From Thermoprotei archaeon (GTDB lineage: Archaea > Thermoproteota > Thermoprotei > Gearchaeales > Gearchaeaceae), in contig JAFMCU010000001.1 in assembly GCA_017857595.1 (NCBI GenBank), forward strand, positions 10,497-74,496: DNA of 64,000 nt, given 5' to 3'. The notes below the pieces were generated by a model that was not told the origin of the DNA, did no database searches, and was given only the letters and a program-made list of their open reading frames with translations. Made by a program: the position numbers and the translations under genes. Shown piece by piece: positions 46,248-59,492 of this stretch. Positions within the stretch are counted from its first letter, which is position 1. Every line of letters starts with the position of its first letter.

Positions 46248-47678
46248 ATGTTTATCTTAGTTAAAGTTCTAACATTTAATGTAATGCAATTTAAAAACAA
46301 AATACCTGTTGCAATGACTATAGCCGGTAGCGATTCAGTTGGAGGTGCAGGGATTCAAGCTGATTTGAAAACTTTCGCAGCACTAGGAGTTCATGGAACT
46401 ACAGCAATCACAGCAATAACGGCACAAAATACTTATAGTGTCACTGCAATACAGGAAATTGATCCTAGCGTTGTTGTTAAACAAATAGAAACAGTTTATG
46501 AAGATACTGGTATAGATGCTGCTAAAACTGGCATGCTGAGTAACAAAGATATAATATCATCTGTAAGTAAGACTATTAAAAAGCTATCGATTCCTTTGGT
46601 TATAGATCCTGTAATGGTAGCTAAAAGTGGTGCAAGGCTGCTTAAAGAAGACGCAATTGAGGTTCTAATAAAAGAATTAATACCTCTTGCATGGGTTGTA
46701 ACGCCGAATATCCCAGAAGCTGAAATAATTTCAGGAATTAAGATAAATAGCGCTGATGATATGGAATTAGCAGCTAAGAAAATTTTTCAAAGAACAAACT
46801 GCAAAGCGGTAATTGTAAAAGGAGGACATCTAAACGTTGAAAAAAGTACAGATGTAATCTTTTATGATGGAAGAATTGTAAGGATAGAATCAGATAGAAT
46901 CCAAACAAAAAATACACATGGAACTGGTTGTAGCTTCTCTGCAGCAATAGCAGCTGAAATTTCAAAAGGGAATGATATATTAACCTCAATAAAGAGGGCT
47001 AAAGATTTTATAAATTATGCGATAAAGTATGCTTTACCCATAGGTAAAGGTCATGGACCTGTAAATCCAACTTCTTGGCTAGAAATAAGAGCTAACAAAT
47101 TATCTGTGTTGGAGAATATGAGAATCGCTATTAATATTCTTGAATCTGAAAAGCTTATAGCAAATTTAGTTCCGGAAGTTCAAATGAATATAGGAATGGC
47201 CCTAGATAGCTTGTATGCAAGAAGTATAGAAGACGTTGCTGCAATTCCGGGAAGAATTGTTAAAATAAAAGACAAGGTTAAATCTTCTTCATATCCCGAA
47301 TTTGGAGCTTCTTCACATATTGCAAGGGCAATTCTTAAAGCAATGGAATATGATATTAGGTATAAATCAGCAGCAAATATTAAGTATGATGAGCTTATAT
47401 TGGAAGCGGCAAAGAGACTTGGGTTTTCTATTTCATATTATGATAGAAATGAAGAACCAGAAGACTTAAAAAATAAGGAAGGAGCAACAATTCCTTGGGG
47501 TGTTGAAATTGCAATAAAAAGGCTAAATCACGTTCCAGATATCATCTACGATAAAGGAGATATTGGTAAAGAACCTATAATTAAAGTATTTGGATATGAT
47601 TCAATTGATGTGGCAAATAAATTAGTCAAATTAGCAAAAATGTATAATGATTTAAAAGCTAAACAATTTCTTCCATAA
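46248..47678 (+). CDS. thiDN: bifunctional ThiD (HMP/HMP-P kinase) - ThiN (thiamine-phosphate synthase) fusion
   Basis: 476 aa. N-terminal half PVAMTIAGSDSVGGAGIQADLKTF...HGTGCSFSAAIAA (ThiD). C-terminal half VPEVQMNIG...IPGRIVK...FGASSHIARAIL (ThiN). The likely true start is the ATG at 46284. Confidence 0.85.
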   Translation: MFILVKVLTFNVMQFKNKIPVAMTIAGSDSVGGAGIQADLKTFAALGVHGTTAITAITAQNTYSVTAIQEIDPSVVVKQIETVYEDTGIDAAKTGMLSNKDIISSVSKTIKKLSIPLVIDPVMVAKSGARLLKEDAIEVLIKELIPLAWVVTPNIPEAEIISGIKINSADDMELAAKKIFQRTNCKAVIVKGGHLNVEKSTDVIFYDGRIVRIESDRIQTKNTHGTGCSFSAAIAAEISKGNDILTSIKRAKDFINYAIKYALPIGKGHGPVNPTSWLEIRANKLSVLENMRIAINILESEKLIANLVPEVQMNIGMALDSLYARSIEDVAAIPGRIVKIKDKVKSSSYPEFGASSHIARAILKAMEYDIRYKSAANIKYDELILEAAKRLGFSISYYDRNEEPEDLKNKEGATIPWGVEIAIKRLNHVPDIIYDKGDIGKEPIIKVFGYDSIDVANKLVKLAKMYNDLKAKQFLP

Positions 47679-48948
47679 TTACTTTTCTATTGAATTTTTC
47701 TTCGTATATAGTTAATCTTGACTTGTATATTACAATTTCTTTAGGCAATTTTCTCATATTATATCTAGAAGCCATCGAATAACCATAAGCACCTGCATTC
47801 AATATAGCAAGTATATCGTTCTCATTCGGCAATGGCATTTCTCTACGAACAGCAAAAACATCTCCTGTTTCACATAAGTTTCCTGCTATAGTTATTAATT
47901 TTTTATTTTCGCTTTCAACGTTATTACAATTAACAATTTCGTGATAAGAGCCATAGAGTACAGGTCTTATTAAATGATTAAATCCACTATCAACACCGAC
48001 GATCAAATCTCCATATCTTTCTTTTATATCCGTAACCTTTACTAGCAATATTCCTGAATCTCCAACAATATATCTTCCAGGTTCAAAGGCTAAGTTGTCA
48101 ATGCTATAATTTAACTCTTTTAAAATTTCAGATATACCTATTGAATATTTTTCCAATGGGAAATCTTGCTCCTTTTCAGAGTATCTAATACCGGGTCCAC
48201 CACCAAAGTTGATAAATTCTAGCTTATATCCCAGTGTATCCTCTAATTTTTTTGCTTGTTGCACAAGAATTCTGGCAGCAGAAAGAAATTCATTCAGTTC
48301 TTCTTCTGTTTTCCAATTGGAACCAACATGCATATGCAGACCAACGATTTTTAGATTTTCTTCTTTTGCTAACTTTACAGCATTGTCAATTTGTTCAATA
48401 GATATTGAGAATTTAATTGGCACGTTATGTGCTTCTTTACCTGCAGTTATTGTTCTCCAATTGTGTCCTAAACCCGGCATTCCAGGGTCTATCCTTAATG
48501 ATATAGGTATATCTTTTCTTATTTTTGATATTTTTTTTATTTGAGATATAGAATCTGCATTTATTCTTACCCCTAAGCTTAAAACTTTCTTCAAATCTTC
48601 ATAAGAAACACTTACACCTGTAAATAATATTCTTTCAGGAGCATAACCATTAGCTATAGCGTATTCAACCTCTTCAGGTGATACACAATCTAGATAAGAA
48701 CCTTCGCTTTTAAGTATTTCCAACAATTTTGGATTGTTATTAGCTTTCATTGAGTAATGTATTCTTATTATTTGCGAAAGATATCTCTTAAGAGTTCTAT
48801 AGAAAATTCTGTATTTATCTAGAACTCTATTTCCATTATAAACATATATAGGCGTTCCAAACCTTTTTGCAAGCTCTTCTGCAGAAATGTTTGCTATGTA
48901 TAACTTGTTGTTTATAACAGATAAATGATTTGGAATTTCCCACCACAT
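47659..48948 (-). CDS. lysA: diaminopimelate decarboxylase
   Basis: 429 aa. HYSMKAN PLP lysine, GGGPGIRY, EPGRYIVG and CETGD. Confidence 0.9.
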   Translation of the reverse strand: MWWEIPNHLSVINNKLYIANISAEELAKRFGTPIYVYNGNRVLDKYRIFYRTLKRYLSQIIRIHYSMKANNNPKLLEILKSEGSYLDCVSPEEVEYAIANGYAPERILFTGVSVSYEDLKKVLSLGVRINADSISQIKKISKIRKDIPISLRIDPGMPGLGHNWRTITAGKEAHNVPIKFSISIEQIDNAVKLAKEENLKIVGLHMHVGSNWKTEEELNEFLSAARILVQQAKKLEDTLGYKLEFINFGGGPGIRYSEKEQDFPLEKYSIGISEILKELNYSIDNLAFEPGRYIVGDSGILLVKVTDIKERYGDLIVGVDSGFNHLIRPVLYGSYHEIVNCNNVESENKKLITIAGNLCETGDVFAVRREMPLPNENDILAILNAGAYGYSMASRYNMRKLPKEIVIYKSRLTIYEEKFNRKVIMEEIV

Positions 48949-48949
48949 T

Positions 48950-49759
48950 TTATAAGTTTATAAAGGCTATTCCTTCCATTATTTTATAAACCTTTCCTGC
49001 AAGCTTTATATTTGAATCATTTTCAATCCTAATTTTAATAATTCCACCAGGCATCTCAACAGAAATTTCATTTTCAACCTTTCCTAATTTATACGCAGCG
49101 AATGCAGAAGCCGAGGCTCCTGTTCCAGATGAGAGTGTTGCACCTGCGCCTCTTTCCCAAATAAACGTATGTATTTTATTCTTATTCTCTACATAGAAGA
49201 ATTCAACGTTTACTCTGTTGGGGAATGCAGGATAATTTTCTATCAAGGATCCTAGTTCATTTAAATATTTTTTTGCTGTATCTTTTGATTCACATTCGAT
49301 TGCAAAATGTGGATTGCCCACTGAAATGTAAAGACCTTTTAATTTTTTATTTGATACTGAAATCTCTAGTATACCTAAAAGATTTGCTTCTCCTAAATTT
49401 ATTTCAATAGATTTATCTTTTAATATTCTAACTTTAGCTATCCTTCCGCCTTCTTTTCCTCCTACTTCAACTTCTCCATATTCTTCTATTATTCCTTTGG
49501 AATGTAAATACGCGGAAAATATTCGTAATCCATTTCCTGAGACTTCAGCTTCGCTTCCATCGGGATTGAAAACCCGCATTCTTGCATTTGCAATACTACT
49601 TTTATTATGAATTAGTATTCCGTCTGATCCAATCCCAATACTTTTATCAGAAAGTAATTTTGATAAATCTGAGTATATTTTTTCTTTTTCAAAATTCAAA
49701 TCTTCGATTACAATATAACTGTTACCTTGTGCGTGGTATTTTTCTATTTTTATATCCAT
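48950..49759 (-). CDS. dapF: DapF-family (diaminopimelate epimerase fold) protein lacking both catalytic cysteines
   Basis: 269 aa and collinear with DapF: HAQGNSY, FNPDGSEAEVSGNGLR, SVGNPH and WERGAGATLSSGTGASA. Both canonical Cys positions are Ser. Confidence 0.75.
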   Translation of the reverse strand: MDIKIEKYHAQGNSYIVIEDLNFEKEKIYSDLSKLLSDKSIGIGSDGILIHNKSSIANARMRVFNPDGSEAEVSGNGLRIFSAYLHSKGIIEEYGEVEVGGKEGGRIAKVRILKDKSIEINLGEANLLGILEISVSNKKLKGLYISVGNPHFAIECESKDTAKKYLNELGSLIENYPAFPNRVNVEFFYVENKNKIHTFIWERGAGATLSSGTGASASAFAAYKLGKVENEISVEMPGGIIKIRIENDSNIKLAGKVYKIMEGIAFINL

Positions 49760-50934
49760 TTGGAATTAATAAGTATTTCACAAGCGAGCTTTATATCATC
49801 GACGCTTGGAACTAATGCGAATCTTGCATATGTATTTATATCTTCGTTTGGATCTAAGCACAGCATTTTACTTGGGGTAACATTAATACCTATTTTTCTT
49901 TCCTTATCTAACTCCAAAATTTTTTTTGCTGTCTCCATTGAATTGTTTGATAATTTAGCCCACACATAAAATGTTGATTCTGCGTAGTACTTTATATCCA
50001 AAGATCTTAATGTTTTTATAAGTATATCCCTTTTGGTCCTATAAAGTTTCCTATTTTCTTCCACATGCCTTTCATCATCTAAGGCAGCTATAGCCGCTTC
50101 TTGTATAGCGTTTGGGATTCCAGAGTCTATTTGCATTTTTAACATTCTAAAATATTTGATTATTTCTTTTCCACCAAAAACAAATCCAACTCTTAAACCT
50201 GTCGCATTACTTCTTTTTGATAGCGAATTGAAAACTATCAAGTTGCTCCAGTCATCAGAAAAATTTAATATAGAATAAGGTTTTTCATCGAAATAAATTT
50301 CGCTATAACATTCATCTGAAGCTACTATTATATCTTTATCTCTTGCTATTTCTATTATTTCTTCATATACTTTTTTTCCTGCTACTTTAGATGTAGGATT
50401 GTTTGGGTAGTTGAGATAAATCAATTTAACTTTTTTGAACTCTTTTATTTTTTCTTCGATCTCATCTACATTTGGTAGAAAATCGTTTTTTTCACTCAAT
50501 TTGTAAAAAACCGGTATTCCACCCGCAAATACAGTTCCAGTTTTATAAGGAGGATATCCAATTGACGGAATCAGTGCGTAATCACCGGTATTTAAAAATG
50601 CTAATGGGAAATGGAATATTGCTTCTTTTGCACCTGCGGTTATTGTTATTTGTTCATCATAATCTACATAAATATTGAACCTTCTTTTCAACCATTCTGA
50701 ATATTTTTCTCTTAGAACCTTCATGCCTATATAAGAAGGATAACCTGATCTTGCATGCTTGACTGCACCTTCTTGTAACGCTTTTATAGCCCCTTCAAAT
50801 AGCGGTTCTGTTGGGTCGCCTACACCAAAATCTATTATCTTGAATCCTCTTTTTATTGCCTCTTCCTTAGCACGATCTATTTCATAAAAGGCATATGTAG
50901 TAAATTGTTTTAAATTGTTTGATGGATTAATCAT
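49750..50934 (-). CDS. dapL: class I aminotransferase, probable LL-diaminopimelate aminotransferase (DapL-type)
   Basis: 394 aa. NYPNNPT and SLSKRSNATGLRVG (PLP lysine). Sits between dapB and dapF, with no dapD, dapE or ddh in the cluster. Confidence 0.65.
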   Translation of the reverse strand: MINPSNNLKQFTTYAFYEIDRAKEEAIKRGFKIIDFGVGDPTEPLFEGAIKALQEGAVKHARSGYPSYIGMKVLREKYSEWLKRRFNIYVDYDEQITITAGAKEAIFHFPLAFLNTGDYALIPSIGYPPYKTGTVFAGGIPVFYKLSEKNDFLPNVDEIEEKIKEFKKVKLIYLNYPNNPTSKVAGKKVYEEIIEIARDKDIIVASDECYSEIYFDEKPYSILNFSDDWSNLIVFNSLSKRSNATGLRVGFVFGGKEIIKYFRMLKMQIDSGIPNAIQEAAIAALDDERHVEENRKLYRTKRDILIKTLRSLDIKYYAESTFYVWAKLSNNSMETAKKILELDKERKIGINVTPSKMLCLDPNEDINTYARFALVPSVDDIKLACEILINSKWI

Positions 50935-50964
50935 ATTTAATTTAGGATAAGCAATTAGATATTA

Positions 50965-51720
50965 TTAAAATTGATTAAAGATTATATCTTCCAGCACTTG
51001 ACCAAAATTATACATACCTTTTTTGCCAATTATCCATTTTGCAGCAATTAAAGCGCCTTTAGCAAAGCTTGTTCTTCCTTTTGAACTATGAGAAATCTCA
51101 ATAGTTTCATATTCGCTATCGAAGCCTACAAGGTGGAAGCCATGATGATATCCAGCTCTTAGAGATACGACGTGTAATTCATTTTTTTCTATTCTTCTAT
51201 TTAATCTATCAAACTGCAGTTTGTTTTTACTAGTAAAATTTTTCAATATTATATTTGCTACTTCCTTCGCAGTTCCTGAAGGAGAATCGGCTTTCATTCT
51301 ATGATGCATTTCGAAAACGTACGGATCGAAGTCTTCGAACTTTGAAATTAATGTGGATGCATAGTTTATAATCTTAAAAAATATGTTAGCACCAATGGAA
51401 AAATTTGGACCGTAAACCATTCCGACTTTGTTTTCTTCAACAATTTTTGTAACGATAGGAAGTCTATCATACCAGCCCGTTGTACCTACAACAATATTTA
51501 CTTTATTTTCAGCAACTGCTTTAACGTTTTCTAAAACTGCATCAGGTTTAGAAAAATCTATTGCAACATCCACATCTTTCATAGATTCATTTGTTATTCT
51601 ATTATGAGTAGCTTCAGGGTCTGTGGGATCTATAATAGATTTTACATTTATATTAAGTATATCTGCAAGCTTTTTAACTTCATGACCCATTCTACCATAT
51701 CCTATTATTGATATGTTCAT
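50965..51720 (-). CDS. dapB: 4-hydroxy-tetrahydrodipicolinate reductase
   Basis: 251 aa. IIGYGRMG nucleotide fold and EMHHRMKADSPSGTA signature. Confidence 0.85.
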   Translation of the reverse strand: MNISIIGYGRMGHEVKKLADILNINVKSIIDPTDPEATHNRITNESMKDVDVAIDFSKPDAVLENVKAVAENKVNIVVGTTGWYDRLPIVTKIVEENKVGMVYGPNFSIGANIFFKIINYASTLISKFEDFDPYVFEMHHRMKADSPSGTAKEVANIILKNFTSKNKLQFDRLNRRIEKNELHVVSLRAGYHHGFHLVGFDSEYETIEISHSSKGRTSFAKGALIAAKWIIGKKGMYNFGQVLEDIIFNQF

Positions 51721-52616
51721 TAATGAACAGGAATTTCATAGTATCTTTTGATTACAGATTTTAATTTATCAAGATTTTGTTGGCTCATTTCGCATAGTGG
51801 AGGTCTACAAGGACCTGCTGGCAATCCTACTAGATTCATAGCAGTTTTGATTGGAATAGGATTCGTTTCTAAGAATGCTGCCTTAAATATTGGCATTAAA
51901 TTATAATGAATTTCTCTAGCCTTACTTAAATTGCCTTCAAGAATATTATTTACTAAATCACAAACTTGTTTAGGTAGGAGATTGCTTACAACAGATATTA
52001 CTCCCTTACCACCACATGCCATTATTGGCAAAGTTAAATTATCATCACCACTAAGAATTGTTTTATCATTTTTTGTCATTGATATTATATCCATTATTTG
52101 TTGCATGTTTCCTGAAGCTTCTTTAATTGAAACTATATTATCTATTTCCAATAATCTTGCTTCTGTTAAAACATCTATATTTACTCCTGTCCTTCCTGGA
52201 ATATTGTAGAGTATAATAGGTAGGTCAACACTTTCAGCTATAGCTTTGAAATGCCTATAAAGCCCTTCTTGAGTTGGTTTATTGTAATAAGGCGCTACGA
52301 TTAAAGCTCCATCTACACCAATTTCACTCGCTTCTTTCGTCATTCTAATTGATTCAGCAGTTGAATAAGTGCCTGTACCCGCAATAACAGGTATTTTTCC
52401 ATTTGCTTCATCTACTGCAACTTTTAAAATCTGCTTTCTTTCTTCTTCTGTTATTGTTGGTGATTCTCCTGTAGTTCCTAATACGACTATTCCTGAAACG
52501 TTGTTTTCTAATTGAAATCTTATTAATTGTCTTAGTCCTTCATAATCAACTTCTAAGTTTTTCTTAAAAGGTGTTACTATCGCAGTTATGCAACCTACAA
52601 ATCCTTTCAAGCTCAT
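51720..52616 (-). CDS. dapA: 4-hydroxy-tetrahydrodipicolinate synthase
   Basis: 298 aa. GTTGES, YNIPGRTG and IKEASG (Schiff-base Lys). TAATG junction with dapB. Confidence 0.9.
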   Translation of the reverse strand: MSLKGFVGCITAIVTPFKKNLEVDYEGLRQLIRFQLENNVSGIVVLGTTGESPTITEEERKQILKVAVDEANGKIPVIAGTGTYSTAESIRMTKEASEIGVDGALIVAPYYNKPTQEGLYRHFKAIAESVDLPIILYNIPGRTGVNIDVLTEARLLEIDNIVSIKEASGNMQQIMDIISMTKNDKTILSGDDNLTLPIMACGGKGVISVVSNLLPKQVCDLVNNILEGNLSKAREIHYNLMPIFKAAFLETNPIPIKTAMNLVGLPAGPCRPPLCEMSQQNLDKLKSVIKRYYEIPVH

Positions 52617-52725: not shown

Positions 52726-53148
52726 ATGACGATGGACGAATTAGATAACATAATAATAAGTGAACTTGAATTAGATGGAAGGAAGCCATTTACTGAAATT
52801 GCAAAAAAACTTAATCTAAGTGAGGGGACAATAAGAAAAAGAGTTGAAAAGCTTGTCAAAGAAGGAAAAATTAAATTCACAGTTATTATAACAACTAAAA
52901 TTGGTTTTTCCGCAATTGTTATGATAAAAACGAGCCCTCAGATGAAAACATCTTCTATAGTAGAATCTATTAAAAAGATAAAGGAAGTAAAAGAAGTTTA
53001 TGAAGTAGCAGGGGATGCAGACATAATAGTAAGAATTTCATGTAACAATGCAGAAGAGTTCAATGAGATAATTGATGAAATACGTTCTATACCTAATGTT
53101 CTTGAAACAAAAACATATACGATATTAAAAATTTCATATCCAAGATGA
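52726..53148 (+). CDS. Lrp/AsnC-family transcriptional regulator (divergent from the lysine operon)
   Basis: 140 aa. HTH FTEIAKKLNLSEGTIRKRVEKL plus a C-terminal RAM domain. Confidence 0.85.
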   Translation: MTMDELDNIIISELELDGRKPFTEIAKKLNLSEGTIRKRVEKLVKEGKIKFTVIITTKIGFSAIVMIKTSPQMKTSSIVESIKKIKEVKEVYEVAGDADIIVRISCNNAEEFNEIIDEIRSIPNVLETKTYTILKISYPR

Positions 53149-53149
53149 A

Positions 53150-53497
53150 ATGTTCTCGAATTTCTTAGGAGCTAAAATAGAAGAATTAAATGAAAGATAT
53201 GTAAAAGTAAAAGGTAAAGTTAAAGAAGAGTATCTAAATGTTCATAATACTGCACATGGTTCTTATATTTTTGCTCTTGCAGATATCGCATTTGAAGCCA
53301 TAAGTAATTATTCAGAAAAGTCAGTTGCTCTACATATGGACATAGATTTTAGGAATCCAGCCTATTTAAATGATGAATTAACTGTTGAAGGCTTCTTAGA
53401 GAGTAAAGGTAACAAAACTTCCTTGTATAGATTCGTAGTTAAGAGAAAAGAAGATATGATTGCTGAAATTCTTGCCCTAGCTTATCACATTAGGTAG
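53150..53497 (+). CDS. PaaI-type hotdog-fold thioesterase
   Basis: 115 aa. NVHNTAHGSYIFALADIAF is typical of PaaI/YbgC-like thioesterases. Confidence 0.65.
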   Translation: MFSNFLGAKIEELNERYVKVKGKVKEEYLNVHNTAHGSYIFALADIAFEAISNYSEKSVALHMDIDFRNPAYLNDELTVEGFLESKGNKTSLYRFVVKRKEDMIAEILALAYHIR

Positions 53498-54877
53498 AAA
53501 TTTGTTGATATCCTGCAGTTGAATTTTGATAGTATGCAAAATTCCATGTTGGTGGGGCATCTAGTGTAAACGGTAGCATGTAGCTAGCTGGAAGACTGAT
53601 TATCTTTCCGTCAAGAGTTGTTATCTGCATGTTAATCAACTCTCCGTTCATCTTATAGTAGCTTATTGGATATAAATTACAGCATGGTTGAAATTCAAGT
53701 TGAGTATATGTTCCATAAAATGCAGTTCCGTTGTATGGTATATACGCAATAAAAACAGAATTTGTCTCAACATCTTTAATATAGAATTCAATTTGATCTG
53801 TGGTCATGTTATAAATTATGGAAAGGAATAGATGAGTTGGCATCGGAGATACAAAACCACTTTGTACAGCTGGATTTTGAGACTGTAAAAAGTAATGAGC
53901 TATACAATTTTTACCAGGTACATACCAAGGCGCTATAGTGCCATTGGGATTCAAATCTATACCGAGTTGGAAAAATCCCACACAGCTTGACCTTGTTGCT
54001 CCGTAGTAGTTCATAGCATTAATTTGGAAACTTAATATGCCAACTTGTGGTGTTGACCAGTTAAACAAAATCATTTCAGCACTCAATTTATAGAATGCTG
54101 GCAACAATTGTACCAATAATCCTGACCCTTGCCCATAACCTTCCATGTTGTTATAACCTGGTATATATATATAGGAATTTCATAAGTGCTTACTACGATG
54201 TTTGTATAATAAACAATTCCATTTAATGTTAGTATAATTGCTCCTGAATATTGATAAGCATTAGGAACATTAAAAGTAGCTGCAATTTGATCTGTCCTAT
54301 CGACGAATACTTGCATAATCCATCCTTCATTAGGATTGGAAGGAGTGCTTGCATTGTATACATTAGCAGCTATGTAGACCCATCCATTAGGATAAGCAGT
54401 ATTTTGTGGAACTTTTTCTATCAACTTTAGATTGTTTAAATCTGATCCTGCATAAACGTAGCCATTCGAAATTCCTACAATTGCAACAGGTTTGTAATTA
54501 TATGCATATAATCCAAAGAATCCTACTCCTTTTTCAGCATTAATTAATACTTGGAACGACAAAAATTGATCCCCTTGGACAAATCCTGAATCAGCTATAC
54601 TAACTTGTACATTATTTCCTTTTGTTTTGGAAACTAAAACAGGCTCTCCTAAATAATTTATAACGTTCGTTACATATATGGAACCGCTTATAGGTATCCA
54701 ACCATCCAGTTGCATATCTTCGAAATTAGATACGAAAGCAAAAGAGCCACTTGTTGAAGTTGTTGGAGCATACTTAATTTTATGCGTTGTGGTTATGGAT
54801 ATGTTTGCAAAAGAATTTGGTAATAAAAACGAAATTAATGATAAAGATACTAATACTATTAGAAAAATTTTCTTCAT
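53490..54877 (-). pseudogene. secreted glycoprotein-like protein split into two overlapping frames at a (TA)6 tract (frameshifted or phase-variable gene)
   Basis: ORF 54083-54877 has a signal peptide (MKKIFLIVLVSLSLISFLLPNSFA) and ends shortly after the TA tract. The second frame (ORF 53490-54146) is open from 54180. Removing one TA unit joins them in frame (...EIPIYIPGYNNMEGYGQGSG...), giving about 460 aa. Confidence 0.55.
54163..54174. repeat. (TA)6 dinucleotide repeat at the frameshift point
   Basis: The plus strand reads GG TATATATATATA GG. The tract lies inside the 54083-54180 region where both reading frames are open. Confidence 0.9.
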
Positions 54878-54913: not shown

Positions 54914-55864
54914 TTATTTCTCAACTTTTTCTAAAACTTTAGCTCCTTCACTGACGTGAGTTATTAACCCTTCAGCATATACTTCATTTTTATTAAATGC
55001 ATTTATCATAGCATTTAATATAACATGCGGATTTGAATTTCTTTTATCGATAATTGCTAATATAGATGGTCCAGCGCCGCTAATACAAACACCTATTGCT
55101 CCTTTTTCATATGCTACATTTCTAACTTCTTCAAAACCTGGTATCATTTTACTTCTGTGTATTTCTACTACATAATCTTTCATCGATTCTCTTAGGAATT
55201 TATAGTTATGAGTTAGGAATGAATAAACAATCCTACATGATTTCGATATGTTGTCAGACATTTGCTTTAAACTTATACTTTGTGGTAAGATTTTTCTTGC
55301 ATATTCAGTTTTTTTAATAGGCAATTGTATCTTAGGTAGGACAATGCATAAACACAACTCTTTATCAGGCATTATTGATACAGGGTCTAAATTATCTATG
55401 GGGGTAATTACAAATCCTCCCATCAAACAAGCTGTGACATTATCATAATGAGGCGAACCTGCAATAAAGGACTCTCCTTCTCCTGCTATATATATCATTT
55501 CGTTCAGACTCAAATTAATGTTAAATATGTTTTTTGCGATGAGAACGGCTGAAACGCAAGATGCAGCACTGCTACCTAAACCCATACCAACCGGAATATT
55601 TTTGATCAAAGAAATATTCAATTTTCCTTTAAGATTGTATTTTTCAGATATTTTAAATAAAAGTAAAGATAGAACATTTTTATTCAAGTCCTTAGGAACT
55701 TCATAATTCCCAGATACATTTAAAGAAATTTCAAATTCGTTTTTATCCCAGTATTCTACTTCAACAATATCACATGGTTCCTGCAAAGCAATAGCTAATA
55801 CATCGAATCCTGGTCCGAGATTAGCACTCGTTGCTGGCGCAATTAGCTTTATGTATTTACGCAT
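54914..55864 (-). CDS. thrB: homoserine kinase
   Basis: 316 aa. APATSANLGPGFD N-terminus and the GHMP motif PVGMGLGSSAAS. Confidence 0.85.
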   Translation of the reverse strand: MRKYIKLIAPATSANLGPGFDVLAIALQEPCDIVEVEYWDKNEFEISLNVSGNYEVPKDLNKNVLSLLLFKISEKYNLKGKLNISLIKNIPVGMGLGSSAASCVSAVLIAKNIFNINLSLNEMIYIAGEGESFIAGSPHYDNVTACLMGGFVITPIDNLDPVSIMPDKELCLCIVLPKIQLPIKKTEYARKILPQSISLKQMSDNISKSCRIVYSFLTHNYKFLRESMKDYVVEIHRSKMIPGFEEVRNVAYEKGAIGVCISGAGPSILAIIDKRNSNPHVILNAMINAFNKNEVYAEGLITHVSEGAKVLEKVEK

Positions 55865-55876
55865 TTGTTATTCTAT

Positions 55877-56938
55877 CTAAAATTTTTCATAAATTATTTT
55901 TCTATACGTATCGATTAACTTTTTTTCAAATCCTTCTTGATTAGCTTTCTCAAAATCGACTTGAGCAACACAAAAGCCATAATTGTTTAAGTTGAATTTA
56001 ATTCCTTCTTCTATCATAAACGTAATTGAAAGTTCAGACTTATTTAACTCTTTATAGCCAGCTTCTTTTAATCTTTTATTAAGTTCATTCAAATCCAATT
56101 TAATATTGTTATAAGGTGAAAGATAAAATATACCCTTACCTTCTCTTGCACATCCAATTTCAAAATTTTTTGAAATTTTATTTATTTTAACATTGGGATA
56201 ATTACTACAAGCCTCGCATTTTTCAGATCTTTTTATATCAATATAGTCAAATATGAGATTTTGAAGGTCTACGAGTAAAATTTTTCCAGCTAAAACAGGC
56301 TGTTTGTTCGTGATTACTCTTATAGCTTCACTTACTTGTACACTAGCAATTATACTAAGAATAGGAGGATTGACACCTACTATTGAACATTTAGGCAAAT
56401 CATCATCAGATAAGCCTGGATATATACATTCTAGACATGCTGTTTTACCTGGTAAAACTGTAAATGCACTTCCTTGATTCTCTATTGCTGCACCATATAG
56501 GTAAGGAATTCCTAACTTAAGACAAGCTCTATTAACTAAATATCTAGCGTTAATTGAATCTGTACAATCAATAACAACATTGCAACCCGTAACAATATCT
56601 TCTACGTTAAAATCAGTTACTGATACCGGAATAGCTTCTATTTGAACTTCCGGATTAAGACTCTTTAATCTTTCCTTAGCGGCTTCAACTTTTAATCTCC
56701 CTACATCATTGGAACTATACAAATATTGTCTATGAAGATCTGTTAATGAAACAATGTCCTTGTCAACAATCCTTAAAAATCCAATTCCCATTCCTACTAG
56801 TTGATAAGCTACAGGTGAACCTAGTCCACCTAAGCCGATTAAACATACTTTTGCATTAAATATTTTGTTTTGTCCTTCAAAGCCTATATTTTGCAATATT
56901 AATTGCCTTGCATACCTTTCTACATTTTTACTTTCCAT
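55877..56938 (-). CDS. ThiF/MoeB/E1-like adenylyltransferase with an extra ~100-aa C-terminal domain
   Basis: 353 aa. RYARQL, GLGGLGSPVA nucleotide loop, CLEC...CEAC zinc-binding pairs and KCSIVGVNPP. The C-terminal ~100 aa have no rhodanese signature that I can recognise. Confidence 0.85.
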   Translation of the reverse strand: MESKNVERYARQLILQNIGFEGQNKIFNAKVCLIGLGGLGSPVAYQLVGMGIGFLRIVDKDIVSLTDLHRQYLYSSNDVGRLKVEAAKERLKSLNPEVQIEAIPVSVTDFNVEDIVTGCNVVIDCTDSINARYLVNRACLKLGIPYLYGAAIENQGSAFTVLPGKTACLECIYPGLSDDDLPKCSIVGVNPPILSIIASVQVSEAIRVITNKQPVLAGKILLVDLQNLIFDYIDIKRSEKCEACSNYPNVKINKISKNFEIGCAREGKGIFYLSPYNNIKLDLNELNKRLKEAGYKELNKSELSITFMIEEGIKFNLNNYGFCVAQVDFEKANQEGFEKKLIDTYRKIIYEKF

Positions 56939-56939
56939 T

Positions 56940-57206
56940 TTATCCGCCAGCTACAGCAGGAATAAAGCTTACTTCATCACCTTCCTTCAAGTTTTTGTTC
57001 AAATCTGTTTCTATTTTACCATTGATATAAATATTGAGTAATCTTCTAATTTGACCCTTTTCATCGAATAACTTTTCCTTTGCTATTAAGTTGTTTTTAT
57101 CTAAGTATTCAAGTAGCTCTTTTAAGTTTGATGCTTCAGCTGTAACTTTAGATTTATTTTTATCCCTTCTTAATATTCCAGGAATGAAAACTTCTACTTT
57201 AGCCAT
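56940..57206 (-). CDS. MoaD/ThiS-like ubiquitin-fold sulfur-carrier protein (C-terminal Gly-Gly)
   Basis: 88 aa ending ...EGDEVSFIPAVAGG-stop, the MoaD-type pattern. Its start overlaps the thrC-like stop by 8 nt. Confidence 0.75.
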   Translation of the reverse strand: MAKVEVFIPGILRRDKNKSKVTAEASNLKELLEYLDKNNLIAKEKLFDEKGQIRRLLNIYINGKIETDLNKNLKEGDEVSFIPAVAGG

Positions 57207-58464
57207 TTATAACTTTTTCAAGATATCTTATATTTGGCTTTATCAAAATAGGGTCTGGTAAACTATTGGCTATTGCTTCAGGTGTTTTGAGACCGTTTCC
57301 AGTAATATAGCATACTACTTTCTCATCTTTTTCTATTTTTCCTTGTTCAACGAGTTTCTTTAAGACAGCAATCGCCACACCACCTGCAGGTTCGCAATAA
57401 ATACCTTCAAATTTGGCCAATAGCTTTATCCCTTCTATTATTTCATCATCATTAGCATCTTCAGCGATACCTTTTTCCTTTAGTCTTCTAATAACATAAG
57501 TACCATCACCTGGATTTCCTATAGCTAAACTTAATGCTATGGTATTGGGTTTATCTATAATATCTACATAATCTTTATTCTTCTTAAATGCATCAACGAT
57601 GGGATTGCAACCTTGTGCTTGGGCAACTACAGGTTTGCTAGGCAATCTTTTTATTAAATCAATATTATAAAGTTGTTCAAAGCCTCTACATATAGCATTG
57701 AACATTGCACCGCTAGCGGTAGGAACAATGAATACATCCGGAGCTTGCCATCCAAGCTGTTCAGCAACTTCATAAGCAAGTGTTTTAGATCCCTCTACGT
57801 AGTATGGCCTTAAATTTATGTTTACAATACCTATATGATAAATATCAGCAGCTTGAGATGCAATCCTATTTGCATCGTCATATGTCCCCTCTACAGCTAT
57901 AATCCTAGCTCCATAAGACTGTACTTGAAAGATTTTAGCTTTTTCTGTGTTATAAGGTATAAATATTAAGCAAGGAAGATTTGCTCTTGCAGCATATGCA
58001 GCGGTTGCACTTGCAAGATTTCCTGTTGAAGCACAACCAACATATTTCATTCCGAATACAATTGCAGCTGTAACTCCTAAAGCAGCAGGCCTATCTTTAA
58101 ATGAATAAGTTGGATTTACGCAATCGTTTTTCAAATAAAGCTCCTTTAGTCCTAAATATTGAGCAAGCCTTATCGATTTTATTAGAGGAGTAAATCCTGC
58201 CTTAATACCTAATATAACTTCTGGCGGTTCGAATGGCAATAATTCCTTATATCTCCACAATGTACTTTCTCTAAACACAACAGTTTCTTTATTGAACCTA
58301 ATTTTTTCTTCGTTGTATAAAACATCAAGAGCTCCGAAACATTCATCGCATACATAATTGTTACCTATTTCAAAAAATTTACCGCAATCTCTGCACTTTA
58401 GACCTAAAACATTTTGATTGATAAGATTTGAGTTTGAGATATTCTTAGTTAAACCTTCATGCAT
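57199..58464 (-). CDS. threonine synthase-family PLP enzyme with N-terminal zinc ribbon
   Basis: 421 aa. CRDCGKFFEIGNNYVCDEC zinc ribbon, PTYSFKDRPA (PLP lysine), ASTGN and TGNGLKT. Confidence 0.85.
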   Translation of the reverse strand: MHEGLTKNISNSNLINQNVLGLKCRDCGKFFEIGNNYVCDECFGALDVLYNEEKIRFNKETVVFRESTLWRYKELLPFEPPEVILGIKAGFTPLIKSIRLAQYLGLKELYLKNDCVNPTYSFKDRPAALGVTAAIVFGMKYVGCASTGNLASATAAYAARANLPCLIFIPYNTEKAKIFQVQSYGARIIAVEGTYDDANRIASQAADIYHIGIVNINLRPYYVEGSKTLAYEVAEQLGWQAPDVFIVPTASGAMFNAICRGFEQLYNIDLIKRLPSKPVVAQAQGCNPIVDAFKKNKDYVDIIDKPNTIALSLAIGNPGDGTYVIRRLKEKGIAEDANDDEIIEGIKLLAKFEGIYCEPAGGVAIAVLKKLVEQGKIEKDEKVVCYITGNGLKTPEAIANSLPDPILIKPNIRYLEKVING

Positions 58465-58592
58465 GGTTTATTAAGAACAAAAGTTTGCTTAAATTCATTT
58501 GTAATTAAATATTAATTTAGTAATCAACTCTAAAACAATAAAATACCAAAAAAACTAACTCATATCTAAAAATCAACTTTCTTTATTTAAAT

Positions 58593-59492
58593 ATGGAAAA
58601 TTATAAAATAACAATGAGCCTGAATTTAGAAGGTATAATAACTCCTACCATAACTCCTATAAAAAATGGAGAGGTTGATAAGGAAGCTGTAAAAGCATTA
58701 ATTGAATATTTAGAATCCATTAAAGTTAATGGCATTTTTCCTTTAGGTAGCACAGGGTGTGCACCAATTATTTCATTAGCTGATTGCAAAAAGGTATTGG
58801 ATGCATTTTCTAAATATATAAATGGCATGCTTTTATTACCAGGAGTTGGTCGAAATAATTTATCTGAAACATTGGAATTAGCAAAGTATGCAAAAGATAT
58901 TGGTGCAGACGCAATAGTAATCGTTACACCATATTACATGAAAATGGATAACGAATCAATATACAAATACTACTATTCTATATTATCATCAATCGACAAG
59001 CCTATTATTGCTTACAATATTCCTCAGCTAACAGGTAATAATTTAAATTATGAAGTTTTGATGAAATTGCTGAATGATTTCTATAACTTAGTTGGTTTAA
59101 AGGATTCAAGTGGAAATTTATCCAATTTTCAAGATTATATAATAAATTTGCCAAAGAATTTTAAAATATTTCAAGGTCAAGATGAACTATTACTTTCTTC
59201 TTTAATTATAGGAGCTTCAGGTGGTATATGCGGAACAACAAACTTTTCAAACTTAGCAGTGGATGTTTATTTGAATTATAAGAGCGGAAATTTTAATAAA
59301 GCTAAAGAATTACAAGAAAAATTAAGTAGGATAAAAAATTATCTAAGTAAAAAGTCATTTCCACAATCATATAATGCATCATTTTATAAGCTAATTTTGA
59401 AGAAAAATTATACAGGTGCTTGTTTTCCTCTACGCGATTTAACTATTGCAGAAATAGATGAAATCTATGAGTTCATCAAACAAAATAATTGA
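58593..59492 (+). CDS. kdgA: DHDPS/NAL-family aldolase, probable 2-keto-3-deoxygluconate(-6-P) aldolase
   Basis: 299 aa. GSTG, YNIPQLTG and GLKDSSGN (Schiff-base Lys), similar in layout to Sulfolobus KDG aldolase. The genuine dapA is elsewhere in the window. ED-pathway neighbours support the call. Confidence 0.65.
   Translation: MENYKITMSLNLEGIITPTITPIKNGEVDKEAVKALIEYLESIKVNGIFPLGSTGCAPIISLADCKKVLDAFSKYINGMLLLPGVGRNNLSETLELAKYAKDIGADAIVIVTPYYMKMDNESIYKYYYSILSSIDKPIIAYNIPQLTGNNLNYEVLMKLLNDFYNLVGLKDSSGNLSNFQDYIINLPKNFKIFQGQDELLLSSLIIGASGGICGTTNFSNLAVDVYLNYKSGNFNKAKELQEKLSRIKNYLSKKSFPQSYNASFYKLILKKNYTGACFPLRDLTIAEIDEIYEFIKQNN

Follow-up and report, generated by a model that had tools for sequence, protein, structure and literature searches.

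Within a 64,000-nucleotide stretch of DNA from a Thermoprotei archaeon (contig JAFMCU010000001.1 of assembly GCA_017857595.1; hereafter the window), four tightly packed genes on the minus strand encode a homologue of threonine synthase (ThrC), a small sulfur carrier protein ending in Gly-Gly, an E1-like adenylyltransferase and the homoserine kinase ThrB. Judged from sequence comparison and by analogy to the MetM/MetO system of Streptomyces, this operon probably forms a self-contained pathway that converts homoserine via O-phosphohomoserine (OPHS) into homocysteine. The initial annotation of the locus had proposed the central reaction, namely that OPHS and the thiocarboxylate of the carrier yield homocysteine, and every comparative test supports this proposal: the enzyme falls into a clade of its own, the clade is linked to the carrier, S-adenosylmethionine (SAM) riboswitches precede members of the clade in bacteria, and canonical ThrC coexists with the clade enzyme. 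The features of the locus are as follows.

57199..58464, minus strand: candidate MetM-type homocysteine synthase, a ThrC-family, fold-type II pyridoxal phosphate (PLP) enzyme of 421 aa (open reading frame (ORF), PALP, TIGR00260)
56940..57206, minus strand: predicted MetO/CysO-type sulfur-carrier protein of 88 aa, beta-grasp ThiS/MoaD family (ORF, Pfam ThiS)
55877..56938, minus strand: E1-like adenylyltransferase of 353 aa without a rhodanese domain (ORF, Pfam ThiF)
55886..56164, minus strand: predicted TBP-like C-terminal domain of the E1, aa ~259-351 (AlphaFold model, Foldseek)
54914..55864, minus strand: homoserine kinase ThrB, 316 aa (NF002288, TIGR00191)
58465..58592, no strand: AT-rich intergenic region of 128 nt between the operon and a divergent dihydrodipicolinate synthase (DHDPS)-like gene (sequence)

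The packing of the four minus-strand genes given in the initial annotation was exactly reproduced, both in the ORF coordinates and at all three junctions. As read from the sequence, the stop of the enzyme gene and the start of the carrier gene share eight nucleotides (57199-57206, ATGGCTAA). The carrier gene ends with GGC GGA TAA, followed by a single base (56939) and the ATG of the E1 gene at 56938, and a 12-nt spacer (55865-55876) separates the E1 stop from the ATG of thrB at 55864. The same four-gene block is present on independent assemblies of Yellowstone-type hot-spring samples from ENA (among them a 185-kb contig), JGI and Logan, and also in a relative with approximately 70% identity. 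The four ORFs therefore represent real genes and did not arise by chance. The G+C content of the window is approximately 30%; among named organisms, Conexivisphaerales and other Nitrososphaerota are most closely related to it, and a megablast search with the operon against plasmid records gave no match. The region at 58465-58592 is presumably the promoter region of the operon. Across the whole window no Rfam family reached its gathering score, and thus no riboswitch was detected in this region.

The ThrC-family enzyme, its carrier and its E1

The ThrC-like enzyme matches the Pfam family PALP (E 2e-67) and the thrC model TIGR00260 (282.9 bits, cutoff 167.1). It contains the motif NPTYSFKDRP with the PLP lysine K123, which aligns to K61 of the Thermus enzyme, and an N-terminal Cys4 zinc ribbon comprising C24, C27, C39 and C42. 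Source annotations name enzymes of this type threonine synthase. We scored the protein with two hidden Markov models (HMMs), one built exclusively from 50 bacterial carrier-linked proteins and the other from 80 canonical ThrC proteins. The window enzyme yielded 520.9 bits with the carrier-linked HMM and 306.7 bits with the canonical HMM, and 30 archaeal relatives likewise favored the former by 196 to 291 bits. Such a preference was not observed for three other long-form 'ThrC' proteins from Natrinema, Priestia and Aliarcobacter. Correspondingly, the window enzyme is 44-50% identical to bacterial clade members, compared with 36-40% to canonical ThrC of Aquifex (2zsj), B. subtilis (6cgq), Thermus (1uim) and M. 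tuberculosis (2d1f).

A joint alignment of 83 clade members and 81 canonical sequences, with residue numbers of the Thermus enzyme taken from the 1uim alignment, separates the two groups at individual positions. T88 is replaced by L and N188 by S in all 83 clade members, whereas T and N are kept in 81/81 canonical sequences; both columns fall outside the motifs that were used for collecting either sequence set. The replacements R160Y, N157R and S155N, together with a one-residue insertion, split clade and canonical enzymes equally cleanly (the canonical set keeps R160 in all 81 and S155 in 80/81 sequences). These positions lie inside the selection motifs and hence do not constitute independent evidence. 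In the window enzyme, the clade residues are L150 (T88), N217 (S155, with the insertion), R219, Y222 (R160) and S251 (N188). Further replacements relative to canonical ThrC are G64P/V, M65A/V and N191M/L, and the clade carries an eight-residue insertion after the AQxxGC motif. The initial annotation had suggested a comparison of substrate-pocket residues; T88L and N188S, at conserved active-site positions, distinguish the clade from all 81 canonical enzymes. A further alignment, with archaeal relatives of the window protein and a protein of Nonomuraea gerenzanensis (see below), reveals four motifs that all of these share and that canonical ThrC lacks:

carrier-linked NPT[YFH]SFKDR[PV], canonical NPTGSFKDRGM
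carrier-linked STGNLA, canonical STGNTS
carrier-linked VNxNxRPYYxEGSKT, canonical VNSVNPYRxEGQKT
carrier-linked ASG, canonical GNAGN

Taken together, the sequence comparisons assign the window enzyme to a distinct carrier-linked ThrC subclade and not to the canonical threonine synthases.

Among the NCBIfam models, none sets this clade apart. PRK08197 was considered as a model for MetM-type enzymes and discarded; it is the best long-form match of the window enzyme (290.8 bits), but an unrelated Aliarcobacter protein reaches 646 bits and the Nonomuraea protein 262 bits. PRK08197 thus represents a different group. The Aliarcobacter cibarius protein, which typifies PRK08197 'threonine synthase', is encoded on plasmid pACIB (L017 2995-4194); where ThrC has its lysine motif, this protein reads NPGGSFKSRGA. 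Its gene is flanked by ssuD/sulfonate ABC transporter genes and by a cysteine ABC transporter, and the protein may be another mis-named sulfur-related enzyme of the ThrC family. Moreover, a contig with 28% G+C (L171 6743-7957) encodes a third kind of ThrC-family protein with the motifs NPTGSFKDRGA, SSGNFA, ELRPFILEGWKT and PAGGGGH, which is neither canonical nor MetM-like.

The carrier matches Pfam ThiS (E 8e-12) and has a free C-terminus, the sequence IPAVAGG being directly followed by the stop codon. One source names it 'molybdopterin synthase sulfur carrier subunit', and with 46.8 bits it lies just below the archaeal MoaD-family cut-off of 49.5. Its closest solved relatives are the CysO-type protein 4n6e_B (E 1e-6) and M. 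tuberculosis CysO (3dwg_C, E 2e-6); MoaD (E 7e-4) and SAMP1 (E 0.85) are more distant. As the window carrier ends exactly at Gly-Gly, it needs no trimming. The bacterial carriers at loci L069, L073, L075, L078, L081, L082, L095 and L096 extend one to eight residues beyond Gly-Gly (GGSR, GGADSVT, GGAPNPLSL etc.). These tails suggest C-terminal trimming before activation, which fits the Mec maturation step in GapMind 2026.

The core of the E1 corresponds to Pfam ThiF (aa 9-242, E 1e-70; PDB ThiF, E 8e-45), and in the AlphaFold model (mean pLDDT 89.3) it matches E. coli ThiF 1zud with a Foldseek TM of 0.95. It comprises the ATP loop GLGGLGS (35-41), a zinc site made up of C168 and C171 (CLEC 168-171) and C241 and C244 (CEAC 241-244), and C184, which is aligned with C184 of E. 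coli ThiF. The E1 cysteines are conserved in 120/120 homologues; C263, within the motif EIGC263AREG that opens the C-terminal domain (family consensus EExC[AG]R[DE]G), is kept in 119/120. The modelled C-terminal domain displays the topology beta-beta-alpha-beta4-alpha (pLDDT 81-97), and its best Foldseek matches, weak as they are (E 0.04, TMq ~0.5), are single TBP repeats. The model thus points to a TBP-like fold, which rules out a rhodanese or ubiquitin-fold identity of this domain. Likewise, the E1 gave no Pfam or NCBIfam match to rhodanese, and its score with the MoeZ model NF005902 (158 bits) remains below the cutoff of 647.

The initial annotation had regarded this part of the E1, approximately 100 aa, as unassigned, which does not hold, since the combination of an E1 core with a TBP-like domain in archaeal E1-like enzymes (arCOG01676) had already been catalogued by Makarova and Koonin in 2010 (PMC2948915, section 3.3). 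The same survey lists a 'Ubl-E1-TBP' fusion in Thaumarchaeota, so that neither the TBP-like domain nor the carrier-E1 fusion described below is new; it gives no strong functional link for arCOG01676 and does not mention threonine synthase. The assignment of ThrB is based on the homoserine kinase model NF002288 (298.4 bits, cutoff 194) and on TIGR00191 (222.2 bits, cutoff 168.25). The remaining family calls of the initial annotation (ThrC-like PLP enzyme, beta-grasp carrier and ThiF/MoeB E1) were confirmed by Pfam and NCBIfam scores as well, and all motifs it had listed, i.e., the PTYSFKDRP lysine motif, the zinc ribbon, AVAGG-stop, GLGGLGS and CLEC/CEAC, were found in the translations.

Gene linkage and genomic surroundings

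Conservation of the gene order was surveyed with two clade-specific peptides in one genome per GTDB species, which gave more than 600 matching stretches, of which the best 80 loci were analyzed. They represent Nitrososphaerota, Bathyarchaeia, Cyanobacteria, Chloroflexota, Nitrospirota, Actinomycetota and one Aquificaceae genome. Of the 78 loci with room for a downstream carrier gene, 72 encode a carrier homologue (...PAVAGG) right after the clade enzyme; these include 29/29 informative archaeal loci. In 28 of these 29, an E1 comes next, fused to the carrier in 24 cases and encoded separately in four. The fused form is essentially that of the ammonia oxidizers, in which a protein of 436-464 aa is encoded right after the MetM-like gene and ...ILPAVAGG continues in frame into SELS...RYSRQ (e.g., L009 7232-8557 and L011 7224-8555; 24 of loci L018-L045 and L071). 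A carrier fused at its Gly-Gly would not be adenylatable unless it is cleaved in the manner of ubiquitin precursors, and no JAMM gene was found nearby in these fused loci. Bathyarchaeia, L065 and the window lineage, on the other hand, encode the carrier on its own with a GG-stop end, and bacterial loci mostly contain the carrier alone.

The survey followed a suggestion of the initial annotation, which had treated the four genes as one translationally coupled operon. The linkage of enzyme and carrier, and of the E1 in archaea, is indeed conserved. The adjacency of thrB is not: thrB stands next to the module solely in the window lineage (the window and L001-L008), and hence does not belong to the conserved core.

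In bacteria, the clade enzyme is in part under methionine-related regulation. A tblastn search against plasmid records identified a homologue in Nonomuraea gerenzanensis, the chromosome of which is filed as a plasmid, with 44% identity including the zinc ribbon. A SAM riboswitch (RF00162, 68.7 bits) lies upstream of this gene, and a gene for a 91-aa protein ending in IIPAVAGG follows it. In all, SAM riboswitches (RF00162, 57-76 bits) were detected immediately upstream of the clade enzyme at six bacterial loci (L013, L047, L048, L078, L081 and L095), a count made up of five of the 13 non-cyanobacterial bacterial loci and Nonomuraea. This association is supportive, not defining, because the M. 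aeruginosa homologue also lacks a riboswitch.

The clade enzyme furthermore occurs side by side with canonical ThrC. When metagenomes were scanned for genes of the canonical type in low-GC DNA, five contigs (L116, L131, L148, L167 and L186) were found to contain clade enzyme, carrier and canonical ThrC on one strand. The clade enzyme of these contigs is 48-51% identical to the window protein, and their canonical ThrC shares 62-64% identity with the Aquifex enzyme. L131 additionally contains an E1 upstream. The Nonomuraea record holds three ThrC-family places, and in cyanobacteria both a clade member and the canonical ThrC2 are present (PMC12172450). Given this coexistence, the two enzymes are not redundant in bacteria.

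Homologues of the E1 were followed as well. Two of them on long contigs, P0130 and P0221, are encoded in clusters with the clade enzyme, the carrier, sulfite reductase and TusA, which ties this type of E1 to assimilatory sulfur flow; a third homologue, P0153, has no linked PLP enzyme. At L221 (3450-10760) and L222 (3739-8333), genes for an assimilatory-type sulfite reductase (NIR_SIR) and TusA directly follow the MetM-like enzyme, carrier and E1. The MetM-like proteins of these two loci are 66-67% identical to a Bathyarchaeia sequence, and the loci probably belong to Bathyarchaeia. L221 also contains a CysK/CysM-like PALP gene, and the gene call for the L222 enzyme (311 aa) is truncated at the 5′-end.

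The operon lies in an aspartate-family amino-acid neighborhood. Besides thrB, this comprises a complete-looking lysine (diaminopimelate) cluster of dapA, dapB, an aminotransferase gene, dapF and lysA 2-7 kb downstream of thrB, and a regulator of the AsnC/Lrp family transcribed divergently from this cluster (together window 47659-52616 and 52726-53148). On the other side, a second DHDPS-family paralogue of 299 aa (window 58593-59492, plus strand), transcribed divergently, borders the 128-nt intergenic region; since the lysine cluster already has dapA, this paralogue need not be dapA. Just past thrB, after a gap of 36 nt, follow two ORFs of 264 and 218 aa on the same strand (window 53490-54877, minus strand) with no Pfam matches. 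The first has a signal-peptide-like N-terminus, and the start of the second varies with the gene caller (194 aa). Finally, the source contig harbors genes for MoeA and two MobA-like nucleotidyltransferases (L224 2323-6162) 2.8-6.6 kb past the high end of the window, i.e., 9-14 kb upstream of the operon. Their presence indicates that molybdenum cofactor is synthesized, which would also need an E1-activated MoaD.

A putative route and its alternatives

In the proposed route, ThrB would convert homoserine to OPHS. The E1 would adenylate the C-terminal Gly-Gly of the 88-aa carrier, and the acyl-adenylate would be turned into a thiocarboxylate at the predicted C-terminus. As the E1 has no rhodanese domain, the sulfur might be donated by a persulfide on the conserved C263 or C184, or by free sulfide attacking the adenylate directly. 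The PLP enzyme would bind OPHS and eliminate phosphate, and the resulting vinylglycine-type PLP intermediate would accept the carrier thiocarboxylate at C-gamma, where canonical ThrC instead adds water at C-beta. Release of homocysteine and regeneration of the carrier might occur by hydrolysis, or by an S-to-N acyl shift and subsequent cleavage. This chemistry is modelled on Streptomyces albulus, where, as told by papers citing the original work, MetM together with the MetO-thiocarboxylate turns OPHS into homocysteine (bioRxiv 10.1101/2024.10.14.618325 Appendix 4; PMC12172450; bioRxiv 10.64898/2026.09.15.751699). The initial annotation had mentioned such a report; it is the work of Hasebe et al. 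2024 (AEM 90:e01247-24), and the content that the three citing papers give for it agrees with this mention.

Several points weigh against this route. Our literature search gave no experiment on the window enzyme or on any archaeal member of the clade, and the tie to the characterized MetM is indirect, consisting of the shared clade, the riboswitch, the carrier and a reported identity of 51.6% between a cyanobacterial member and MetM. Near the operon, genes for a JAMM/Mec-type hydrolase, a rhodanese, a cysteine desulfurase and a sulfite reductase are all absent. The JAMM motif HxH...S..D was found in no ORF of the window and in none of 34 archaeal loci, and the JAMM Pfam family was not represented among the genes called on approximately 83 kb of the source contig; a JAMM hydrolase gene may be located elsewhere in the genome. 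Moreover, the domain architecture of the E1 is the one common in archaea, and the enzyme could act on other carriers. Residues T88, N154, S155, R160 and N188 of Thermus ThrC, which we take to form the substrate-phosphate site, were not confirmed as such by any paper in our literature search. If this assumption is right, the clade rebuilt the part of the pocket that decides the events after phosphate leaves; in Thermus ThrC, the retained phosphate presumably helps to direct water to C-beta.

The other counterpoints speak at the same time for the explanation that the ThrC homologue is the threonine synthase of the organism, either alone or as a bifunctional enzyme forming threonine with water and homocysteine with the carrier thiocarboxylate. 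The window enzyme clears the cut-off of TIGR00260 (283 bits), in agreement with the source names, and thrB is located in the same operon. The TIGR00260 match does not separate the clades, because the riboswitch-linked Nonomuraea protein passes this model too. For the cyanobacterial clade member of M. aeruginosa, turnover of OPHS following Michaelis-Menten kinetics and a weak release of threonine are reported in vitro (PMC12172450). In addition, a canonical thrC of the source organism was not found in the approximately 83 kb of its genome inspected: neither tblastn in the window nor the Pfam tables for these 83 kb of the 185-kb source contig revealed a second ThrC-family gene. A metagenome scan for a low-GC pattern encoding NPTGSFKDRG gave 120 loci, the two closest of which by tetranucleotide composition reached r values of 0.978 and 0.973, compared with a range of 0.989-0.994 within the window; one of these two candidates is a Methanomethylicia ThrC and was hence rejected as that of the source organism. 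As only a small fraction of the genome was searched, little weight attaches to the failure to find a second thrC. In contrast, the positions that distinguish the clade in the active site show no variation within it and set it apart from all 81 canonical enzymes, canonical ThrC coexists wherever whole genomes or longer loci are visible, and carrier and E1, which have no role in threonine synthesis, are nevertheless translationally coupled to the enzyme. We therefore consider this explanation unlikely. A shade less likely still is the possibility that in the window lineage, perhaps in all Nitrososphaerota, the carrier-linked enzyme is the only ThrC-family protein and OPHS is split between threonine and homocysteine at one active site. 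The co-transcribed thrB and the general-purpose architecture of the E1 would fit such a scheme. If true, the partition would be set by the availability of charged carrier, and a plant-like branch point would be collapsed into one enzyme.

Carrier and E1 could alternatively represent a general ubiquitin-like sulfur-relay pair for molybdopterin, tRNA thiolation or protein conjugation, with their position being irrelevant to methionine. The molybdopterin name and near-threshold MoaD-family score of the carrier, the standard archaeal E1 plus TBP-like architecture, the MoeA and MobA-like genes on the source contig and the unlinked E1 homologue P0153 are in line with this view. We regard it as very improbable, since the adjacency of enzyme and carrier (72/78) extends over archaea and five bacterial phyla and is also found at loci without an E1, the carrier is nearer to CysO-type proteins than to MoaD, SAMP or Urm1, neither MoaE nor a tRNA-thiolation gene adjoins, and sulfite reductase and TusA are added in related loci. 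An E1 shared with other carriers would, moreover, be compatible with the proposed homocysteine route. It is hardly probable at all that the PLP enzyme produces another sulfur compound, be it cysteine from O-phosphoserine as in CysM/CysO or a sulfonate as made by the ThrC relative cysteate synthase. This idea is suggested by M. tuberculosis CysO being among the closest solved relatives of the carrier, by a weak match to the cysteate synthase model TIGR03844 (74.6 bits, cutoff 324.9) and by SAM riboswitches governing sulfur metabolism beyond methionine synthesis. It is countered by the ThrC scaffold, which performs gamma-elimination on OPHS, by the OPHS-forming thrB in the operon, by the characterized representative of the clade, which is described as making homocysteine, and by L221, where a separate CysK/CysM-like PALP gene stands beside the module.

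Significance and comparison with known systems

For many archaea outside the COG1900 route of methanogens, the synthesis of homocysteine is uncertain; GapMind 2026 is silent on homocysteine synthesis in Nitrosopumilus. With the operon described here, the MetM/MetO pathway of Streptomyces (2024) appears to be extended to archaea as a complete four-gene version, and the archaeal loci comprising enzyme, carrier and E1 include many ammonia-oxidizing archaea and Bathyarchaeia, groups that are globally abundant; among the best 80 loci, the module was present at each informative locus of these two groups. The source names, threonine synthase for the enzyme and molybdopterin subunit for the carrier, are wrong or uninformative, and NCBIfam offers no model specific to the clade, so that methionine and threonine capacity will be mis-assigned when metabolism is reconstructed from genomes. 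Owing to its compactness, the operon lends itself to direct reconstitution or complementation.

The closest counterpart is MetM/MetO of Streptomyces albulus, as described in the citing papers. There too, the gene of a PLP enzyme homologous to ThrC precedes that of a small carrier of the ThiS/MoaD type with a Gly-Gly end, ThrB supplies OPHS, and the enzyme is usually annotated as threonine synthase. A SAM riboswitch is reported for metM (PMC12172450), a feature common to the actinomycete clade members Nonomuraea, L078 and L081. The Streptomyces pathway is stated to include the adenylyltransferase/sulfurtransferase MoeZ and the hydrolase Mec (bioRxiv 10.1101/2024.10.14.618325). In the window, by contrast, an operon-encoded E1 with a TBP-like domain replaces MoeZ, no Mec/JAMM gene is located nearby, the carrier ends at GG, thrB is co-transcribed and a riboswitch is lacking.

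The CysM-CysO-Mec-MoeZ system of M. tuberculosis resembles the proposed route in that a Gly-Gly carrier, thiocarboxylated by an E1, is the sulfide donor for a PLP enzyme of fold-type II whose substrate is an O-phospho amino acid. It differs in that the enzyme belongs to the cysteine synthase family and catalyzes a beta-replacement yielding cysteine from O-phosphoserine, with a rhodanese-bearing E1 and a JAMM hydrolase; for the ThrC-family enzyme of the window, a gamma-replacement is expected. Wolinella succinogenes is said to form homocysteine from O-acetylhomoserine by means of HcyS-HcyF-HcyD-MetY, a system that Krishnamoorthy and Begley reportedly described in 2011 and that uses a protein thiocarboxylate and a dedicated E1. 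Its MetY is reportedly of fold-type I, with an O-acyl homoserine as substrate and a carrier needing JAMM processing. The Wolinella cluster is also said to adjoin a sulfite reductase, as do the archaeal loci L221 and L222.

Canonical ThrC shares with the window enzyme the fold, the PLP lysine and the expected substrate, and a zinc ribbon is also found in many archaeal canonical ThrC proteins; it lacks the obligate carrier neighbor of the window clade. The E1 has the same architecture as arCOG01676, and the Ubl-E1-TBP fusion adjoins the clade enzyme at 24 ammonia-oxidizer loci. The systematic link to a MetM-type enzyme is seen here, in contrast to the arCOG01676 survey (PMC2948915). Taken together, the system is of the MetM/MetO kind and does not constitute a new category, and the spread of the module among archaea may already be contained in Hasebe et al. 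2024. What is new with respect to the described systems is that the operon itself encodes an E1, one lacking a rhodanese domain, that thrB is adjacent, as it is in the window lineage only, and that no JAMM hydrolase gene is associated with the module.

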